The notes beneath the pieces are model-generated. The model was not told the origin of the DNA, did no database searches, and saw only the letters and a list, made by a program, of their open reading frames with translations. 64,000 nt of DNA from positions 124,001 through 188,000 of the forward strand of contig MU004239.1 in assembly GCA_010405405.1 (NCBI GenBank), in the 5' to 3' direction. Positions 27,936-62,139 of this stretch are shown piece by piece. This DNA is from Microthyrium microscopicum. Lineage: Eukaryota. A program made the position numbers and the translations under genes. How positions within the stretch are numbered: position 1 is the stretch's first letter; each line of letters begins with the position of its first letter.

Positions 27936-30900
27936 TCAAATTACAGCTGGAGTGATACGCAACAACCTCATCCCATTCTCAAGCACCACACGAGTCGCCT
28001 CATACAGGGCAGCTTGTGCTGGAGTGATTCCAGTGACCTTCTGCTCTTCCGATACCCTAACTTTGTTATCATCTTTGCTTGCTTGCAAATTCGTTTCATC
28101 CAGTGTCTGATCTTGCCGAGCAAGTTCGTCATTCTGTGTCTTTTCACCGAGCAGTGTATCTCCAACCTCTCCACCAGCAGGGTCCTGCTTCTCGGAAATG
28201 ACTTCACTGGATTCTTCTGGTGCATGTGCTATTGTTTCCTCCGCAGCTGACTCCACTTCTTTTCTTTGTGGGGCTTCTGGTACATTAACGTGATGTTCAT
28301 GAGATGTGGCTGAAAATTCCTGCTGAGCCACTATAGAGTTGGATTGTGCGAAATCATGGAGTGAATCATGGCGTATATGTTTCTGGGCCTTTTCATCTTC
28401 AATCTCTGCATGTATGATGGGCACGTCCGGCGCCATTTGAGTCGTTTCGGCTGGATGGCCTTCCTCTGTTTTTGTTTCTACTGCTCCACCATTTGTGAGC
28501 TCGCTTTGGGGTCTTGGTTCTGCTTGCTCTTTGATTTGGCCAACAGTCTCGACTGCCGCGGCTTGTTCTTCGTTTGGTGAGACTTGTACTTCTGGTTGCC
28601 CTGTTGCGTGAGCGTCCTCGCATGGCACTTGTGCTATTGGTGTCGCTTCAGTGGGTGCTACTTCAGTGGGTGCTACTTCAGTGGGTGCTACTTCAGTGGG
28701 TGCTGCTTCAGTGGGTGCTGCTTCAGTGGGTGCTGCTTCAGTGGGTGCTGCTTCTGTGGGTGCTACTTCAGTGGGTGCTGCTTCAGTGGGTGCTGCTTCA
28801 GTGGGTGCTGCTTCAGTTGGTGCTGCTTCTGTTTGTGCTTCTTCAGTGGGTGCTGCTTCAGTGGGTGCTGCTTCAGTGGGTGCTGCTTCAGTGGGTGCTG
28901 CTTCAGTGGGTGCTGCTTCAGTGGGTGCTGCTTCAGTGGTTGCTGCTTCAGTGGTTGCTGCTTCAGTGGTTGCTGCTTCAGTGGGTGCTATTACAGTCGT
29001 CACATCTGCCGGGGGTGTCGCTTCGGTTGGCACATCTTCCGTGGATGTCGCTTCGATAGATCTTGCTTCCATGGGCGTTGCTTCAGTTGGCGCTGCTTCC
29101 ACAGGGCCCGCAATTCCTTGGAGCAAAGGCTCGTTTTGTGCGCCCTCTCCAGAAACGGAATCATGAGCATCTTCGTCTTCAGGTTTTGGGTCCAAGCAGG
29201 ACGAGAGCTGGTCGACAAGTGAGAAAAGATACTCCAATATCCCAGCAGGCTCTAAAGACGTGTATGCAGCATGAGTTATGTTTGGGTACTGGGTTAGCAT
29301 TCTTGCTAAATCTGTAAACTCGTCTTCATCGATTGAATCGATGTCTTCTGCCGAGAGATCGGTACTATCTGGAGCTTCTTTGAGAAGAGATTGAAGTCGA
29401 GTGTACCAGTATTGAAGCTCTGGCCCTGTTCGGGGCTCAAATGAGGTCATCTTAGCAATATCAAAGCTATGATCTGTACCTCTCCTGGCAGACAGTTCTT
29501 GTGAAAGTAAAGCATTGGTAGCCATAATGGTCGGTAAGTCTGGTGTTTGACCCAGTAGGAGCGACTTATCGGGGTTTGTCTCCAACGACTCTTTCATGGC
29601 GGTTTGACATTGGTCTAAGATCTCGTCTAAGCCATCACCTTCACCAAACTTCTCGGACATGCTTGAGACATCGCTGAATGCTACATGAAGAAGTTTGTTA
29701 GCTAGGTCAGACATGCCCATCAGCTCCAGAACCTGTTTGATGCGTTGGAAATGTGTTGAGTGGTCTTTCGCGACAACGAAAATCATCTGATCAAAATTGA
29801 ATTTCCTTGACCGTTCTAGGATTGCAGCAAGATCTCGGAGCTGGTAGGTTGTACTTCCAGTTCTATCCCGGATAACCACTGCGCCTGAACGATTGGAGTG
29901 CTTCTTCAAATCCACGATCCAGGATCCTGACGAGTCCTGTTCGCTCAAGCCCTTAGCTTTCAAAATACTTTCCACTTCGTTCATAGTTTCGGCAGTGACT
30001 AGAGATTCTCCAGAGTATTCGTCAAAAGTGACATTGAGTCGAGAATAGAGCTTGGTGTAATGCTCTATGTTTACATCTCGTACCCGTTTCCAGAAGCTGA
30101 TTTCCTTCTCGCTACCATTGAGCATCTTGGTAAAAAAGTCGTTTCGTTCTGCGAAAAGACCTTGCGCTTCGAATTCAGCAGTGTCACCTCCTTCATCTCG
30201 GATCTTCTTATACTCTGCCTGAACTGGTTTAAACAGTTCGTTGACTTTGTAGTTCACTTCGCGCAAGTGGCCTACTGGGTTGGTTGCGAAAGCTTCCTCG
30301 GATCCAAATTTGTCCCATCCAATGCCCAGAAGCCCGATAGGTTTACCCCAGTCTCCAAGATAATTGATCTTGATAGCTTCCCAGCCCATGGTTTCATACA
30401 TAGTAGCGATATGAGCTCCAAGGATTGTGCTACGGAGATGTTTGGCTTGAAAATCACTGGCAATATTTGGAGAAGAGAATTCCACTACAACCTTTTTGCG
30501 CCCTGAGTTTGGACTGGAGGGATCTCGGCTCCCCAAAGACAAATCTTGTCCGTATAGTACCTTACGGTCGTTGATGTACGGAAGGATGATCTGTGACAAT
30601 ATGCTGGTCTCGAACATTATCCTTAGATGAACTCCATCTGGAATTGGGAAATCGAACAATCCGCAATCTCGAAACTGTAAGAAATTAGTTGTCGGCTGGA
30701 GAGTCGAAAACGGATCAAATCAGAAGATACCTTCTCAGCTATTTCGAAGGCAAGCACATTTGCCTTGTCTTTTGGACCAAGTCGTGGGAGTATGATAGCC
30801 AGATCCCCATTATAGATATTCTGAGGACATTGGATGGACTTGAAGGCCACACTTCGTTCGCATCCAACAGCCTTCTGAACGATATCCGCAACATAAGAAC

Positions 30901-41613: not shown

Positions 41614-43034
41614 ATGGCTCTAAACTGCGCCAAACAAAAAACATATTGGCTGCGATGTCTCAAGACATTTCTCCCGAACGGTTACACTTCAATGGATTCC
41701 AACCGTATGATGATTGCCTGCTTCATTATATCCGCTCTGGACATTCTCTCAGCACTGGATGCCAGCATGACTACCGATGAGCGGAGTAGCTACATCGAAT
41801 GGATTTATGCCAGTCAACAAGACACTGGTGGATTTCAAGGTTTCCCGCGCACGCCGGATGCAAATCCAGAGCCAAATGATTCACATTCAGATGCGCGCTT
41901 AACCATAATATGGGAACCGGCCACTGTTCCATCGACCTTCTTTGCACTGGCCGCACTGCTACTACTTCGCGATGACTTTTCACGCGTTGGCCGCCGCGAA
42001 TGCTTAACCTGGCTGACAAAGTGCCAGCGAGCAGACTGCTCATTTGGCCAAAATCTCAACGACAAAGGCGAGGTTGATGGCGGCTATGATACACGCTTTG
42101 GATATTTAGCCATGCATATTCGATGGATGCTAGGTGGCGATCTACTCGCTACGCAGGAGCCAGCCTGGCCGGATGTTAATATTGATGGGCTAGTACGGAG
42201 CATTCGCGCGCTGCAGGTACGTTGAACAAGGGCACATTGACCTGGCTTTAGGGGCTGGGTGAGCATATATTGTAGCGATCTCGAGGATCTGGACGGGAGC
42301 GCTTGGCAGGGTTGAGGCGTAAATCAGTGGTTAACGGGCTGATGTGTGCTTAGGCTTATGATGGCGGGTTTGGCGATCTTCCGTGCTCCGAGCCACATGG
42401 TAAGTACAAAGAGGATTTGAGAGACCCTAGAGCCATGCTAATTAGACAAGGTGGCTATACGAACTGTGCGGTCAATGCACTTGCAATTGTCGACAAACTT
42501 GCAGACGGCATACCAGACGAAGATGCTCTCATTCACTGGCTAGTTTTACGCCAAACTCGCCAGTTTGAACCAGACAATGAAGATGACGAGGATGAAGATG
42601 AAGAACAAGGCGGCTTTGCAACAGCGACAACATCTTCCGCCATTGGATTCAATGGTCGCTGCAACAAAATAGCTGACACATGTTATACCTGGTGGATATG
42701 TGACACTCTTAAGGTAATGCATACTTTTTAAAGTTGCAACTCAAATCCAAAGTTAATCTCGCTGACACATTGCCCCCCGCATTAGACTCTAGGTCAGATC
42801 GAACTTATTGACAAGTCTAAAGCAACATCCTACCTACTCAACAAGACTCAACACTTCATTGGAGGCTTTGGAAAATATCCGTCTGACCCACCGGACATTT
42901 ATCATTCTTACCTTGGTCTAGCAGCTCTAGGGATTCTCGGATGCCCCGATGTCAAACCAGTACATTCAACAACATCAATCAGTGTGGATGCAGTTGATTA
43001 TTTGGAGAAAGTCATAAGGCCTGGATACAGTTGA
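41614..43034 (+). CDS. CDC43: Geranylgeranyltransferase type I beta subunit
   Basis: YTSMDSNRM, EPH.GYT.CA, FNGRCNKIADTCYTWW and GGFGKYPSDPPDIYHSYLGLAAL. Four exons. Confidence 0.88.
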
Positions 43035-44608
43035 TTATCCGGCTATTATAATCTGACTCTAGGTTTGAAGCGCCCCAAAATCGAGCCATTCCATGTTCCT
43101 CCTATACGGAAGTTTGAGGATATCTTTCCTCAAGAAAATCCAGCCTCGAAAGATCTGCCCTTGATATCGAAAGGTATCAACCCTATAGGAACAATGCAAG
43201 CTCTCAAGCCAAACAGTTGCGCAATGATGTGCATAGTTTCATGAAACATCTGTCAGTTTCTCTTGTTTTCAACTAGCTGCTAAATTTGTAGTAAGAGTTA
43301 ATGTGATAGGTGGGCTCAGTCATGTTTCAAGGTCTGATTCAGAGTATTTCAAAACTTCGGTGCACAGAAGTTAGACTCAGGAAGATTCTTATTGCGACAT
43401 GGAAACCATTGGATCGGAAAATTTATCACTCCATTCATCGTACCAATGACAAGCAAGACTGGAGCGACTAGAGGACGGAAAATTATATCTGCTCTTTCTG
43501 TTCCATTGTTGGCATCCCAGTCTAGTGTTATTAGACTCCGTCGAGATCGCCTGTACAGTTATAGGATCTTCCTTAAGCGACAAGCTGCAAAGCCCCCACG
43601 GGATGCTCCTTTTGATCACCGCCCTGAAGTCTGGTCACTTCAACGTGGTCTGGTCTCACTTAGCCCCCAAATTGGTTCATACAAGCTTCACAAGCACCGA
43701 GCCAAGTTCTGTAGTTGTTTGGACTTCCCAAACTTTGTACCCGTGAATCTATTTTTGAATTCATGTTTACCGTGCCACTATGATAGTGGAGCTCTGTATG
43801 CGCAATATTTGTGCACTGAGACCAACATGTCACTCCTTAAACAACTTGCTTTGCATGCTATATTAATAGGAGTGATAAGAATTGGTCGGTGATCATTTAG
43901 CATAGTTTTCCGATGTCATGGTAGTTAAACCCAGACTCCTCTAAAATGCGGGGATTTATTAGAATAAGCACAAACAACGGGTAAGGAGATCATTAGTAAA
44001 TCCTTTAGAGTACATGTCAACAGGCATGTCTTGTACAAAGGCCTGCCCAGATCAGGGTTCGTGCTATTACTGGACTCCTCTTAATAGGGCATCAACCAAA
44101 GTACAGGTCAGTATGGGCTGGATACTCAAAGGTTATTGAAACCTTACAGATGCAGATAATGCCTAAACTGGCCAATTTAGAATACTTATATTAGGTTAGA
44201 TGGGGTATTTTGCACTCATCGACCTATTGCAAGCCAACAACACCATTCTTCTGACTGCATTTACTGCGCATATCTATAGCATCCTTTGCATAGTGCTCTC
44301 ATTTGCAATCGCAGATTAGATAGATGTCCCTAGCTTTATGCATCTAGGCCTCTTGCTCGAGCTCAGTCTCGCATCAACCATGGCTTTGGCCAGAAGCAGG
44401 AGTATCCGCGAGCTGTAGCGCCCAGTCACCAGGATCCACAGACCCAGGCCAAAGCCAACACCCAGCGTGCCACATGCGGATATATAAACCACCCCAGGCC
44501 GTCTCTCAGATACTCTCTCCATCACCAAAGCAGACTCATTCGCTTCAGTCTTCTATCACATCTTACACTCTTTTCATAAATCAATCACTCCTTTCAAAAG
44601 CAATCATC

Positions 44609-45535
44609 ATGCGTTTCACAGCCATCATCGCTGCTGCCATCATCAGCTACAGCACTGCTGTGCTCGGCGACATCTCTGCCACCGATGCGAAAGACCCCGC
44701 AAACGTGCTCAAGCATGACATCGGTCGTCTCAACCACGACGCTCAACGTGTCGAGCATGCTTTCCGCCCCGGCAACGTTCCAAATCTTCCAGGTGCCCCA
44801 GGCCGCCACCACCGCATCGTCACCCGCGATGTCGAAGCCGTTGAAGATGGCGAGGTCGATGCCGTCTCAGAGGACTTGGACGCCGTGAGCCTTGCTCGCA
44901 AGCGTGGCAAGGGCCGCCGCCGCTCAAAGGGCAAGGGAAAGGGGAAGGGTAAAGGTCGCGTCCGCACCGTTGAAGCCCGAGCCGTTGAAGAGCTCACTGC
45001 TGTTGAAGATGGCGAAGTCGATGCCGTCTCCGAGGACCTCGATGCTGTGAGCCTTGCTCGTAAGCGCGGCAAGGGCCGTCGTCGCTCCAAGGGCAAGGGC
45101 AAAGGAAAAGGCAAAGGCCGCGTCCGCACCGTTGAGGCCCGCGCAGTTGAAGAGTTCACTGCCGCTGAGGATGGCGAAGTCGATGCCGTCTCAGACGACC
45201 TTGAGGCTGTCAGCCTAGCCCGCAAGAAGGGCAAGGGCCGCCGTCGCTTCGGTGGAAAGGGCAAAGCTCATCGACGAGTCATCATCACTCGCGCAACCCC
45301 TGAGGCTGAGCGCCAGCGTGAGCGTGAACGTCTCCAGCACGACCAGAAAGATGCTGCTAAGATCGAGCATCAGCTTGCGCAGCACCCCAATGCGCCAAAT
45401 TTCCAACCACCACGCGGAAATGCGCCTCATCCTAATGGAGCCCCATTCAATGGAAACGCGCCTCACCCAAATGGCCCACCACGTGGAGGACCTGCCGGCG
45501 TTCCTCATGGTCCTGCTCCAGGTCGCCCATTCTAA
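44609..45535 (+). CDS. Secreted repeat polyprotein; putative precursor of cationic peptides
   Basis: Signal peptide MRFTAIIAAAIISYSTAVLG, three acidic-spacer/basic-peptide repeats, strongly C-ending codon bias, and TATATAAA near 44481. Confidence 0.88.
   Translation: MRFTAIIAAAIISYSTAVLGDISATDAKDPANVLKHDIGRLNHDAQRVEHAFRPGNVPNLPGAPGRHHRIVTRDVEAVEDGEVDAVSEDLDAVSLARKRGKGRRRSKGKGKGKGKGRVRTVEARAVEELTAVEDGEVDAVSEDLDAVSLARKRGKGRRRSKGKGKGKGKGRVRTVEARAVEEFTAAEDGEVDAVSDDLEAVSLARKKGKGRRRFGGKGKAHRRVIITRATPEAERQRERERLQHDQKDAAKIEHQLAQHPNAPNFQPPRGNAPHPNGAPFNGNAPHPNGPPRGGPAGVPHGPAPGRPF
44837..45275 (+). repeat. 162-bp coding tandem repeat x~3
   Basis: GCxGxTGAxGATGGCGAxGTCGATGCCGTCTC at 44837, 44999 and 45161, with mostly synonymous differences. 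Confidence 0.95.
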
Positions 45536-46892
45536 ATCGTTTGAGCGATTCTGACGATGTATTGACATCAGGTGGATATCCAGATAACGAACTGACGATG
45601 AGATATTGGGGAGGATTCTGGATATAGTTCAGTTTCTAAAGTCGCGCATTGGTTGCGATACATTTTTTTGACACTTTACTTTTGAGAATGAAAAACTTAA
45701 TTTTCCCTTCATTTTGCTTTCTTGATACTTGTGCCGAGTTAATAAATGATTTGAACAACCGAGTATGGACTGGAGAAATTAGAGGATAGCTATGCGATGG
45801 AAGTAACATATTCGTTGGAATCGGAGACTTCCTAGCCATGCCTCCCCCACGGCCTCGATAACCGTGCTCTCTGCTCAAAAAGTATTCGGCTGAGGAGAAT
45901 AATCCATTATGAATGCTCTCTGCACAAAATATCAATCATCTCTATGTCCTGAGATGGAATTGTACCGAAGAGCGATGAAACGGTGAGCAGGATCTTGAGA
46001 TCGACAAGCATATTACCGCTGTGGTATCAAGGTTCTCTATTAAGGGGATGATCGAGCTTGAAGAAGCAGTGATTGGTGAACTCCAAGGCCAACCACAATC
46101 GTGAACCACCAGGCTTTGCGACCTTGAATCGACTGAGTAGCTTGAGGAGTATAAGGGCGGTGTTCGTTGCAAACTACGGACGCAAACACCGTATGAAGAC
46201 CGGAAGATCGCATACACTAAAGATATTTGATAGTTAGATGTCTATTGGACTGTAGAGAGAAGAGAGAAGAAGTTGACGAGACAAATCAACGTCGGAAGTT
46301 GGGAATAGGGGCCGTGCTTGACTAGCACAATTCCGACCTAGCGGCTTGGCATCAATTGAACATTGAAGACTTGCTTGACTGCGATCATTACCTCTCATCA
46401 ACCACTACATACACAACAACTTTTCCATATCGCCCTTATTCTCGTACATACTACTCCTTCTACTGCATGTCTAATAGTAATGTTTACCGCTCATAATCTC
46501 CCCTATTACCCACGCCCGTCTTCACCCTCTCCACTTACCCGCGTCTCCTTTGGCCCATTTCTGCCTCGACATCGGTACCTCCGAAATCTTGCCAAACCCT
46601 CTCTCCACAGGCCCCCGCTGTCGTCTCACAATTCCAAGCCAGTGCCTTCGTTGTTCCCCTAAGAGGTCCTAGCTTCCATCTCCTTCCCGAGAACTGACGT
46701 ACAATCCGGGAACATTCTTCTCGCTGCTTTTCCGGCCCGTACACTGCCATACATCGCTGCCATCTCAGAACCACCTCGGTCGCCCTACACATGCCCCTGG
46801 CCTAGCGAGCCGCATACATAACCGCAACCGCATCGCTCACTCACCAACAATTCCCTCAGGCGCCGCTGTATCGACGCTCCTGGCTGTCCGTC

Positions 46893-59676: not shown

Positions 59677-61494
59677 TTATGCCTCGCTCCCATCCTCAAA
59701 GTATGGCTGGAAGCTGCGAGTTCGCGGTCGCCCAACTTTTCCCGCCGCCCTCGTTGCCCGCGTTTTCTTAGCAGCCTTCTTCGCCGGCGCCTTCTTCTTG
59801 GTTACACCTGCGCGCCTCTTTAGCCCTCTAGGAGGAAAGCCTTCTCTCGGGAGCATGGCACCAGCTCTACCTGACCTCAACTCCTCCCGACGGTCGAAGT
59901 CGTCTCTAGAAGGAAAGCCTTCTCTTGGGAGCATGACAATAGCTCTACCTGACCTCACCTCCTCCTGAACGTCGAACTCATCTGAGTCGTCTCTAGGAGG
60001 AAAGCCTTCTCTTGGGGCCATGGCAATAGCCCTACCTGCCCTCACCTCCTCCTGAACGTCGAACTCATCTGAGTCGTCTCTAGGAGGAAAGCCTCCTCTT
60101 GGGGCCATGGCAATAGCTCTACCTGATCTCACCTCCTCCTGAACGTCGAACTCATCTGGATAAGCTTGATACCCAGGACAATTATGCGCAGAAAGATCAT
60201 AGTATGGCTCGGGACTGCGACACGCCTGGTACTCTGGGCTGTCTGGTGCATATGGAGATCGCGCACACCCTGGGCTCTCTGGTGCATATGGAGAACGCGA
60301 ACACACTGGGCCACCGGCAATGTCATGGACAGTGCTCTGACGACCGCGACTGGCTGGGTAGGGTTCGTATCCGGACCCGTATGCTAGTGCTGGTGCATGG
60401 ATTACCTCATTGTTTAGTTTGTTTGACGGCGGCCAGAATGTATTTGGAGGCTGATAGCCTGTGGTTGAAACCTGATAGAATGGCTGTACAGCAGGCGACG
60501 CGGTCTGCGGAATACGCTGTTTGCCTTTCTGCCCAAGGTTCCGTTGGATCCTTCTAGAGGCAGGTGAAGTCGTCAACCAGCTAGGAAATCCAGTGGGTGG
60601 GTTAAGCCAGTCATATGGCGCGCTTGTTCCACTCGCACGGCTTTTGCTGCTTTGAGTGCTTTTGCTTCCTGAGCGGGCGCCCGTCCAGCCTGGAGGCGCA
60701 CCGCTGATTCTATTAATGGAGCTCTGAATCTGCAGTCTCAATGGGAGTAAGTTCAAAAAGTCTTTGAGTGGCGTTCCTGGAGCCTTGATAGTCCCAAGCT
60801 TTCGCAGGAGTTTGGCTTCAAAGTCGGGATAATCCTGTTGATGTGTGTCAACGAGTTGAATAAGCACGGCGCCAAGTCTCTCTTTGATGTAGCTGCTGAT
60901 GTACGGATGCGGCAGGAGGTTGTAGACGAGGAATCTATTGAGACTTGCGCGGAGCCTGTCATGGATCACGTAGTCTCCAGGTGGAGGTTCAAACTTTTCA
61001 AATAGCGAGTTAGCCCATTCGCCTTGTGGATGTGCCCAGTTGTCAAGACCGTAATCGTAATGAGGTGGTGAGGGTACGAGGCCAAATAGTTGTTCTCCCT
61101 CAGACGCTGCGAGTCTCTTTGCTCTCTCAGCCACAACCTGACGCAGAGGTTTGTCAGAGGAGCTCGTGGACGGCGGGTCTGCAAAAGTAGCCTTCTTAGG
61201 ACTCTTCTGCGCAGCAGACCTAGTGATGCGTGGTTTTGGGTGAGAGCTGAAGTCAGGGTGTCTCTCGGCCACGATCTGCCACAGAGGTTTGTCTAAGGAG
61301 CTTGTGGCCGGTGGGTTCGCAAAAGTAGCCTTCTTAGGACTCCTCTTTGCAACAGGTTTGGTGACTTTGCTGGCCGGGCTGGTAGGAGCTTTATTAGTCG
61401 GCGTGGCACTTTTCACCACCTTGGTCGCTTTTTTCTTTGGCGACAAGGAGCGAGCTGGAGAGGCAAGTGCCTTCTTTGATCGAGTGACGGCCAT
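59677..61494 (-). CDS. Low-complexity repeat-containing hypothetical protein (605 aa)
   Basis: Intact intronless ORF with basic ends and internal tandem repeats. Confidence 0.8.
   Translation of the reverse strand: MAVTRSKKALASPARSLSPKKKATKVVKSATPTNKAPTSPASKVTKPVAKRSPKKATFANPPATSSLDKPLWQIVAERHPDFSSHPKPRITRSAAQKSPKKATFADPPSTSSSDKPLRQVVAERAKRLAASEGEQLFGLVPSPPHYDYGLDNWAHPQGEWANSLFEKFEPPPGDYVIHDRLRASLNRFLVYNLLPHPYISSYIKERLGAVLIQLVDTHQQDYPDFEAKLLRKLGTIKAPGTPLKDFLNLLPLRLQIQSSINRISGAPPGWTGARSGSKSTQSSKSRASGTSAPYDWLNPPTGFPSWLTTSPASRRIQRNLGQKGKQRIPQTASPAVQPFYQVSTTGYQPPNTFWPPSNKLNNEVIHAPALAYGSGYEPYPASRGRQSTVHDIAGGPVCSRSPYAPESPGCARSPYAPDSPEYQACRSPEPYYDLSAHNCPGYQAYPDEFDVQEEVRSGRAIAMAPRGGFPPRDDSDEFDVQEEVRAGRAIAMAPREGFPPRDDSDEFDVQEEVRSGRAIVMLPREGFPSRDDFDRREELRSGRAGAMLPREGFPPRGLKRRAGVTKKKAPAKKAAKKTRATRAAGKVGRPRTRSFQPYFEDGSEA
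59827..60157 (-). repeat. 87-bp coding tandem repeat x~4 (DEFDVQEEVRSGRAIAMAPRxGFPPRDDS)
   Basis: TCTAGxAGGAAAGCCT at 59827, 59905, 59992 and 60079. Confidence 0.95.
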
Positions 61495-62139
61495 GATAAC
61501 GAGTTTTTGACCAAACGATTTTGATGGAGCGCCTTTTCAATGCTTAACAGGGTGCTGTCAGTGGAACAAATGTATGATAAGGAAATCTCTGTTTGCTTGT
61601 CATTTGAAAAGAAGGCGTCGTAGATATCACCTTTAACAACAAAGAAACAAATGGGACAAAGGACACTCCCTCGACGCTCAATGCACTCAATAAGTGATTT
61701 ATGTTTTCTTTGTTTCCGTCGATCCGTTTGCAGCATCATTGACTGATACCAATCCTTATAATTTGAGAAGTTTGAATTAAGAATCCGAAATAGGGATTTC
61801 AAATTGGTCGGAACTAGTGGTGTGACAAGCGTTGAACTTCGGCCGCGTGGTGTATGGAGAATAAATCGAGATGAACTGAAAGGGGATGTTAACGTACGCT
61901 AAATGTAATGCTTTAATGAACAGATCCAAATTACTTGCCAATGACCGGGAGAATAAGCTTCTGCTTGGCTAGTCTCTTTACTGTCCTATTCGCCGGTGGT
62001 GAAGAATATGTCCCTTTCATGAAACAATGAAGCTGATAGAATGCTGAGACAATGCGCACGTATACGACGAATATGACCTTGACCAAAGTGCGGATGATAT
62101 CGATGGGTGAGTATATTATACATACCACTGAGTTTGCAC

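Follow-up and report, generated by a model that had tools for sequence, protein, structure and literature searches.

The forward strand of the 64,000-nt stretch of Microthyrium microscopicum DNA analysed here (the window) carries an uninterrupted ORF of 308 aa followed by TAA (44609–45535), whose product, P0001, alternates three acidic spacers with three blocks rich in Lys, Arg and Gly. Judged from its sequence, the gene is real and strongly conserved and its layout is observed directly, while its processing and function are what we infer. The reading we favour, at a probability of roughly 45%, is that P0001 is a kexin-processed, secreted and disordered polyprotein carrying polycations behind acidic masks, that these are released in two cuts, and that they are most likely antimicrobial.

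The ORF is present in a single copy (37.1 Mb of genome searched) and is flanked by genes for a prenyltransferase and a protein kinase, among housekeeping genes of an intron-bearing genome. Compared with phages by megablast, the kinase gene gave no match. A contig from run X1, possibly of the same strain, spans 42784–46238 with no differing letter and no joint within the ORF, and the repeat therefore did not arise in assembly. X1 contains spliced joints in neighbouring genes, and this contig is continuous from the upstream gene through the intergenic stretch; because it crosses intergenic DNA, and none of the runs containing the sequence is registered as RNA, it confirms the sequence of the ORF rather than a transcript or a level for this gene. 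An artefact or a wrong-frame reading is ruled out by this identity and by the all-silent differences between the first two repeat units described below. Elsewhere in the window, on the reverse strand, an arginyl-tRNA synthetase ORF (27936–30719) reads on without a stop across some 400 residues of acidic and A-A-P-T-E repeats; these apparently break up the DALR anticodon domain as an insertion or an in-frame intron. Also on the reverse strand, an ORF of 619 aa without a Pfam match (59677–61536) carries, towards its C-terminus, several acidic/Arg-rich repeats that are nearly identical.

The public model of the gene in NCBI and UniRef (P0002, 353 aa) begins at an upstream in-frame ATG (44474–44476), which adds 45 N-terminal residues (44474–44608) and is probably not the real start. 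This ATG precedes a TATA-like box (TATATAA, 44481–44487) that is followed by a C/T-rich leader, a promoter function being suggested by sequence, and it has no counterpart in the related protein P0014, whose N-terminus aligns with the second ATG at 44609. On both grounds, 44609 is the likely start codon. The first 20 residues (44609–44668) then form a signal-peptide-like segment, with a hydropathy peak of 2.7 and 9 of 20 positions identical to the N-terminus of P0014, a score reached in only 8 of 20,000 shuffles. The longer model would conceal this signal peptide in secretome screens.

Behind it lies an N-terminal pro-segment (aa 21–73, 53 residues; 44669–44827) that ends in IVTR, an aliphatic-P4 monobasic site of kexin type aligning with TVKR/LTKR of the relatives; a helix spans residues 30–51 in a low-confidence model. 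Three units follow. In the first, an acidic spacer of 24 aa and net charge −8 (44828–44899), which closes with the junction motif of the family, [DE]-L-[DE]-A-x-x-x-A-[RK], leads into a cationic core of 20 aa and charge +12 (44900–44959) that contains no hydrophobic residue and ends in Gly-Arg, and then into a linker, VRTVEAR (44960–44980), whose end aligns with KR sites of the relatives. The second has a spacer of 27 aa, net −8 (44981–45061), a core identical in protein to the first but with silent differences (45062–45121) and the same VRTVEAR linker (45122–45142). The third consists of another 27-aa spacer, net −8 (45143–45223), a divergent core of 18 aa and charge +10 that ends in His-Arg-Arg (45224–45277), and the linker VIITR (45278–45292), again an aliphatic-P4 monobasic site. 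A charged predicted helix (aa 229–258; 45293–45382; pLDDT 80–90 over residues 231–260) precedes a disordered tail rich in Pro, Gly, Asn and His (45383–45532), which is missing from the available sequences of the relatives.

A sequence-only reading of this DNA had described three 54-aa units, which is right for the period (the anchor EDGEVDAVS recurs at 54 and 54) and wrong for the length, since counting between the proposed cuts gives 51, 54 and 50 aa. Its charge counts hold, with 9 D/E in every spacer and 12 K/R per 20 aa in cores 1 and 2 (10 per 18 in core 3). Every segment does end in Arg, as it had also stated, a weak argument by itself given that Arg makes up 37 of the 308 residues. The protein has no Cys, no Trp and no N-glycosylation site, and its only Tyr sits in the signal peptide. 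The AlphaFold model has a mean pLDDT of 50 and is too poor for a fold search; its only confident parts are the helix at aa 229–258 and the N-terminus, and the repeats have no secondary structure. A Cys-stabilised antimicrobial protein (AFP, defensin) was rejected on the absence of Cys, this low mean pLDDT and the unstructured repeats. The two flanks (44669–44827 and 45293–45445) each have a predicted helix, L-x-H-D and then a Pro/Gly/Asn stretch, and might represent a second repeat type, but their similarity is not significant (65–163 of 2,000 shuffles reach its score) and this repeat was not accepted.

Selection on the repeats can be read from units 1 and 2, which had been noted as near-identical with silent differences. 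They are identical over 52 residues and differ at 21 bases, all synonymous; with 40 synonymous and 116 non-synonymous sites over these 52 codons, the neutral chance of this is about 4e-13. Ten of the 21 differences fall in the cationic core, where all 20 codons keep their residue. Purifying selection therefore acts on every residue of the repeat, the cationic core included. The strong codon bias reported before is likewise evident, the strongest in a comparison of 14 ORF stretches of the window: TTC/ATC/TAC account for 18 of 18 cases, against fractions of 0.23–0.87 in the 13 others, and CGY for 34 of 37 Arg codons, against 0.20–0.67, the repeats not being independent and some comparison ORFs possibly including intron bases.

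Codon bias of this strength suggests bulk synthesis, and would suit a secreted surface material, in which the acid and base blocks, once processed and co-secreted, undergo phase separation or attach to the anionic wall or leaf surface to form a Rep1-like adhesive or coat for hyphae or spores. The near charge balance of each unit, the predicted disorder and the Pro/Gly/Asn-rich tail agree with such a role, and Kex2-cut repeat proteins such as Rep1 do make surface layers (PMC8528282). Against it, P0001 offers no Cys, Trp, N-glycosylation site or Tyr beyond the signal peptide for cross-linking, the peptides of Rep1 are amphipathic whereas the cores of P0001 are not, and the tail does not appear in the available sequences of the relatives. 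We regard a surface material as a serious alternative but a doubtful one.

None of the four proteins P0001, P0003, P0014 and P0022 has a match near the cut-off in Pfam or NCBIfam. A phmmer search of 1.84 billion representatives returned four matches, namely P0001 itself, P0003 (E 8e-14), P0004 and P0005, and a profile built from the repeats and P0003 gave 10 matches among 8,000 scored candidates, including P0014 (E 6e-12), of which P0022 is a cluster mate. A word-index search with whole P0001 recovered nothing but itself among 8,000 scored candidates of 169–539 aa, the ESM Atlas held no usable match for the repeats (best score 0.77) and BLASTP of P0001 against P0003 produced no alignment. Low complexity makes such scores suspect. 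Matches were subjected to a shuffle test with the cationic blocks masked. Nearly all of 10 proteins passed an unmasked block shuffle, which did not separate the relatives from unrelated KG-rich matches. In the masked test, none of 500 shuffles reached the scores of P0003, P0014 and P0022 (z 4.1–4.9), and these 3 of 12 matches were kept. The other nine (P0004, P0005 and P0015–P0021) were rejected as compositional, with 68–499 of 500 masked shuffles reaching their scores. Searched back against the genome, P0003 and P0022 each have the ORF at 44609–45535 as best match. On sequence grounds there are thus two independent relatives, P0003 and P0014/P0022.

Both come from JGI/IMG metagenome contigs of 0.9–2.8 kb, and their loci were not found among the metagenome, viral and prokaryote contigs searched. 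Judging by their LEKR-type sites and signal peptide, they look fungal; the R-L-L that follows each of their cores also fits the diatom RXL motif (PMC4557024), a warning that they need not be. P0014 and P0022 are identical up to the fourth core, where P0014 diverges and stops, probably through a frameshift in one assembly. P0003 carries the label "ribosomal protein L19E", a sub-threshold match on its basic block. This label, like the public model of P0001 that starts 45 residues early, illustrates how easily such genes are hidden.

One plan recurs in all 10 units of these sequences (three in P0001, three in P0003 and four in P0022): a kexin-type site, an acidic spacer, a conserved junction, a K/R/G core and a mostly aliphatic linker. 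The site before the spacer is a canonical KR in 7/7 units of the relatives and IVTR or VEAR in P0001. Spacers measure 18–27 aa with a charge of −6 to −8, and they end in [DE]-L-[DE]-[AD]-x-x-x-A-[RK]-K, the best-conserved motif. The cores, of 16–22 aa of Lys, Arg and Gly, have a charge of +10 to +14, hold 0–2 hydrophobic residues and follow no fixed sequence; they end in Gly-Arg in nine units and in His-Arg-Arg in one, with two mostly aliphatic residues thereafter. The net charge of a whole unit is 0 to +2 in the relatives and +3 to +5 in P0001. Taken together, this suggests a small, previously undescribed family of charge-masked peptide precursors. Across it the sequence of the core varies, whereas its length, charge and Gly content are maintained, a pattern that would suit a physical-chemical role.

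The same freedom weighs against another reading, by which the peptides are signals or cell-entering regulators, that is, receptor ligands or nuclear-targeted or nucleic-acid-binding peptides rather than antimicrobials. Arg-rich peptides are generally known to enter cells, and units 1 and 2 are identical in protein. Many KEPs are pheromone-like (PMC6339444, PMC7329392), but P0001 lacks an aromatic or other motif of the widespread KEP types described in the accessible text of PMC7329392 (W-x-W, HH, Tyr). Moreover, the cores vary freely inside one precursor, P0022, and no receptor gene was seen among the genes neighbouring the ORF at 44609–45535. We consider a signalling role very improbable. A histone-tail-like nature had been among the options named earlier, and it is apt for the composition of the peptides; nothing else was found in its support.

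The sequence-only reading had taken the protein for a polyprotein cut after single Arg residues of LxxR type. The polyprotein itself is upheld by the KR of the relatives at the IVTR/VEAR positions (7/7 units) and by the acid/polycation layout and near charge balance in 10/10; the cut map needs correction. IVTR, VEAR and IITR, with Ile, Val and Ile at P4, remain good single-Arg sites, whereas SLAR has Ser at P4, at odds with the aliphatic-P4 rule (PMC8528282), and its position is Ala-Lys in P0014/P0022 (4/10 units). The junction is better written as [LF]-A-[RK]-K, then Gly within two residues. The proposed cationic peptide of 27 aa has to be given up, as the relatives mark the end of the core at the Gly-Arg before two aliphatic residues, which leaves a core of 16–22 aa.

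The genome contains one kexin gene. Kex2 accepts aliphatic-x-x-Arg sites (PMC8528282; 10.1101/2020.05.27.120113), a rule under which Thr is accepted at P2 and Ala is not among the top five residues listed (PMC8528282), and monobasic cuts have been observed in KEP peptidomics (PMC9769878). At P1'/P2' of the sites that Kex2 cleaves, acidic or small residues are enriched and basic ones scarce (PMC2515848); this primed-side preference is soft, since Lys at P1' gave good secretion and normal yields in Pichia (PMC3777899). The boundaries of P0001 are followed by D-V, A-V and A-T. Acidic or small residues occupy P1'/P2' at the boundaries and at most core ends, and mostly basic ones at the junction and at internal KR/RR, although basic neighbours at internal sites are partly inherent in any polybasic block. 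Core ends 1 and 2 (G-R before V-R) have a basic P2', contrary to the primed-side rule, and G-R-R-R within the cores may be a further cut site.

A separate locus bears on the use of single-Arg sites. On contig C9 (L026:7190–7953, forward strand; G000:C9, about 1835190–1835950), we noticed a second secreted cationic repeat precursor, single-copy and apparently with introns. It contains four copies of one 21-aa His/Lys/Gly/Ala peptide (net +5) and one variant, separated by 7-aa spacers that end in VEAR or LVAR, and its main exon has no KR or RR. Its punctuation by xxAR (10 such motifs) suggests that the fungus uses such sites. Two UstYa/DUF3328 genes stand head-to-head with it, a TRI12-type efflux pump is close by, and the locus is a candidate Tyr-free polycationic RiPP cluster. 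The genome has 22 UstYa/DUF3328 matches (exon-level) on 10 contigs, suggesting many dikaritin-type loci in this fungus.

How the precursor is cut separates our reading from two others. A strict dibasic digest yields P0001 fragments of 76, 45 and 45 aa, each ending in the repeated spacer, and either cuts the cores to pieces of 1–8 residues or fails to separate them from the spacer that follows; in the relatives, it yields repeated acidic peptides of 17–22 aa. If kexin and Kex1 did act at every KR, RR, KK and RK, the cores would be largely destroyed, and the products of this KEP would be acidic peptides ending in L-D-A-x-x-L-A or, in P0001, a 45-residue base-acid hybrid. All four dibasics are treated as sites in KEP surveys (PMC7329392), the spacer's C-terminal end is the best-conserved motif, and A-R-K-R, present in units 1 and 2, is a canonical site. 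That site and the internal KR/RR of the cores also speak against our model of an intact core. However, a polybasic block of 16–22 residues with a fixed Gly-Arg end far exceeds what a cut site needs, and in a comparison of units 1 and 2 all 20 core codons keep their residue, although 10 silent changes separate them. In addition, Kex2 takes almost exclusively Arg at P1 (PMC8528282, PMC3777899), whereas the cores of P0022 are mostly Lys. We judge processing by the dibasic rule unlikely.

At the other extreme, the protein could be secreted largely intact as a block polyampholyte that binds ions, polyanions or minerals, its basic sites shielded by pairing with the acidic blocks. Kex2 left one third of predicted substrates uncleaved in vitro (PMC2515848), and P0001 has monobasic boundaries in which P2 is Ala or Thr. 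Against this, the boundaries of the relatives are all canonical KR with an acidic residue next, and the predicted disorder would make the protein accessible. This alternative seems quite improbable.

For the charge-masked polyprotein that we favour, the signal peptide would direct the precursor into the ER, and Golgi kexin would cut at IVTR, VEAR and IITR (KR in the relatives) and at the core end, after G-R and before V or L, small or acidic residues following the cuts. From the known specificity of Kex1, this enzyme would remove the last Arg and halt at Gly, so that the polybasic block is spared. With a view to amidation of the terminal Gly, as in X-Gly-Arg precursors of amidated peptides, a search for PF01082 (PHM/PAM) gave no match in the genome, and likewise none in the controls. 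The product of this step would be a pro-peptide of 34–47 residues, net +2 to +6, whose acidic half neutralises the core during export. A second cut in the [LF]-A-[RK]-K region, either by kexin acting on the dibasic or by a protease from outside, would then free a core of 15–22 residues and charge +10 to +14 that starts at the Lys or the following Gly. Since the strict dibasic digest shreds the cores, their intact survival is something we infer. The freed cores would most likely bind anionic microbial surfaces and nucleic acids, killing or inhibiting competitors. Pore formation is unlikely, because with 0–2 hydrophobic residues the cores have no hydrophobic face. Synthetic 13-mers of Gly/Arg and Gly/Lys are bactericidal largely regardless of sequence, their activity having mostly been measured in low-salt buffer at pH 5.5 (PMC6399351), and the conserved charge and length of the cores with free sequence fit such a sequence-independent mode.

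Fungal ribosomal antimicrobials mostly have cysteine-stabilised folds or are modified cyclic peptides. If our reading is true, charge-masked disordered polycations would be an added kind of fungal defence peptide and would offer a testable function for orphan KEPs, most linear KEP peptides being without known function (PMC9769878). It would also mean that polybasic cargo can pass kexin, and that surveys using the dibasic rule would fragment and misread such cargo in silico. More tentatively, and no better than possible, P0001 could be the first sequenced-genome member of an undescribed fungal family of pro-antibiotic polyproteins, with masked, Cys-free and non-amphipathic K/R/G polycations that survive kexin, are Gly-capped against Kex1 and are armed by a separate cut at the L-D-A-x-x-L-A-[RK] junction, perhaps extracellular, the precursor on C9 being a second, enzyme-modified branch. 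If that were so, fungi would have arrived independently at the logic of frog-skin precursors, the cargo being a ribosomal polycation.

Two known precursor types were rejected. Dikaritin RiPP precursors are, like P0001, secreted repeat precursors, but there is no Tyr in the repeats for an aryl-ether cyclisation of ustiloxin type, the neighbours are housekeeping genes and, as had been noted before, no UstYa/DUF3328 gene, expected within about 15 genes of such a precursor, is nearby (0 of the 22 PF11807 genome matches are on C10, the contig of the ORF). An alpha-pheromone precursor, which would have an MF_alpha-like aromatic core, was discarded given the lack of Trp and of a Pfam match and the residues after the boundaries, which are not X-A/X-P after KR.

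In our strict digest, P0001 has at least three tandem repeats of 8–100 aa between KR, KK, RK or RR, the written criterion for a KEP (PMC7329392), and would qualify as one if the signal peptide is accepted. It shares with KEPs a predicted signal peptide, the tandem repeats, the kexin-type sites and probably the release of linear peptides (PMC6339444, PMC7329392, PMC9769878), many KEPs being genus-limited or stand-alone (same sources). It differs from them in its monobasic boundaries and in having its dibasic sites within the putative product. Blocks of polyanion alternating with polycation do not figure in the KEP motif types described in the accessible text of these surveys; it is by their descriptions that P0001 is set apart, and it may have an unremarked fellow among their members. 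The words "charged" and "antimicrobial" are absent from the accessible text of PMC6339444, and no paper on an acid-masked polycation precursor from a fungus was found in the literature searched, which was thin on subscription journals. Ece1, the precursor of candidalysin (PMC12153327), resembles our model of P0001 as a fungal polyprotein on which Kex1 acts after Kex2 and whose companion peptides protect the active peptide on its way through the secretory pathway. Candidalysin is single-copy, hydrophobic, pore-forming and KR-bounded, and its companions prevent aggregation, whereas the cargo of P0001 is repeated, hydrophilic and charge-masked; homology is not claimed.

The cores resemble CIDAMPs, which are linear, Gly- and Arg/Lys-rich and disordered, and whose activity is set by length and charge, not by sequence (PMC6399351). 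The composition that defines CIDAMPs (linear, cationic, with many disorder-promoting and few order-promoting residues) is also that of the P0001 cores, with charges of +10 to +12 and 0–2 hydrophobic residues. CIDAMPs are known from human skin proteins and synthetic peptides, and the accessible text of PMC6399351 describes no acid-masked fungal precursor. As predicted for the P0001 family, the diatom silaffin precursor Sil1p (PMC4557024) combines a signal peptide and an acidic part with repeated Lys-rich peptides. These peptides are released at a C-terminal RXL, comparable to the R-L-L after the cores of the relatives, whereas P0001 has R-V-R and R-V-I; silaffins are also Ser-rich and heavily modified, with an acidic domain that is not interleaved (PMC4557024). 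The antimicrobial precursors of ranid skin (PMC13128954) have, as predicted for P0001, a signal peptide, an acidic spacer, a basic cut site and a cationic product, and combine, as apparently here, a conserved signal peptide with a variable product; again, homology is not claimed. By analogy, then, P0001 would be a polyprotein of KEP type arranged like the pro-peptides of animal antimicrobials. The precursors of magainin and apidaecin are multi-copy with acidic spacers, and what such animal precursors release is amphipathic or Pro-rich, whereas the cores of the P0001 family are hydrophilic polycations.
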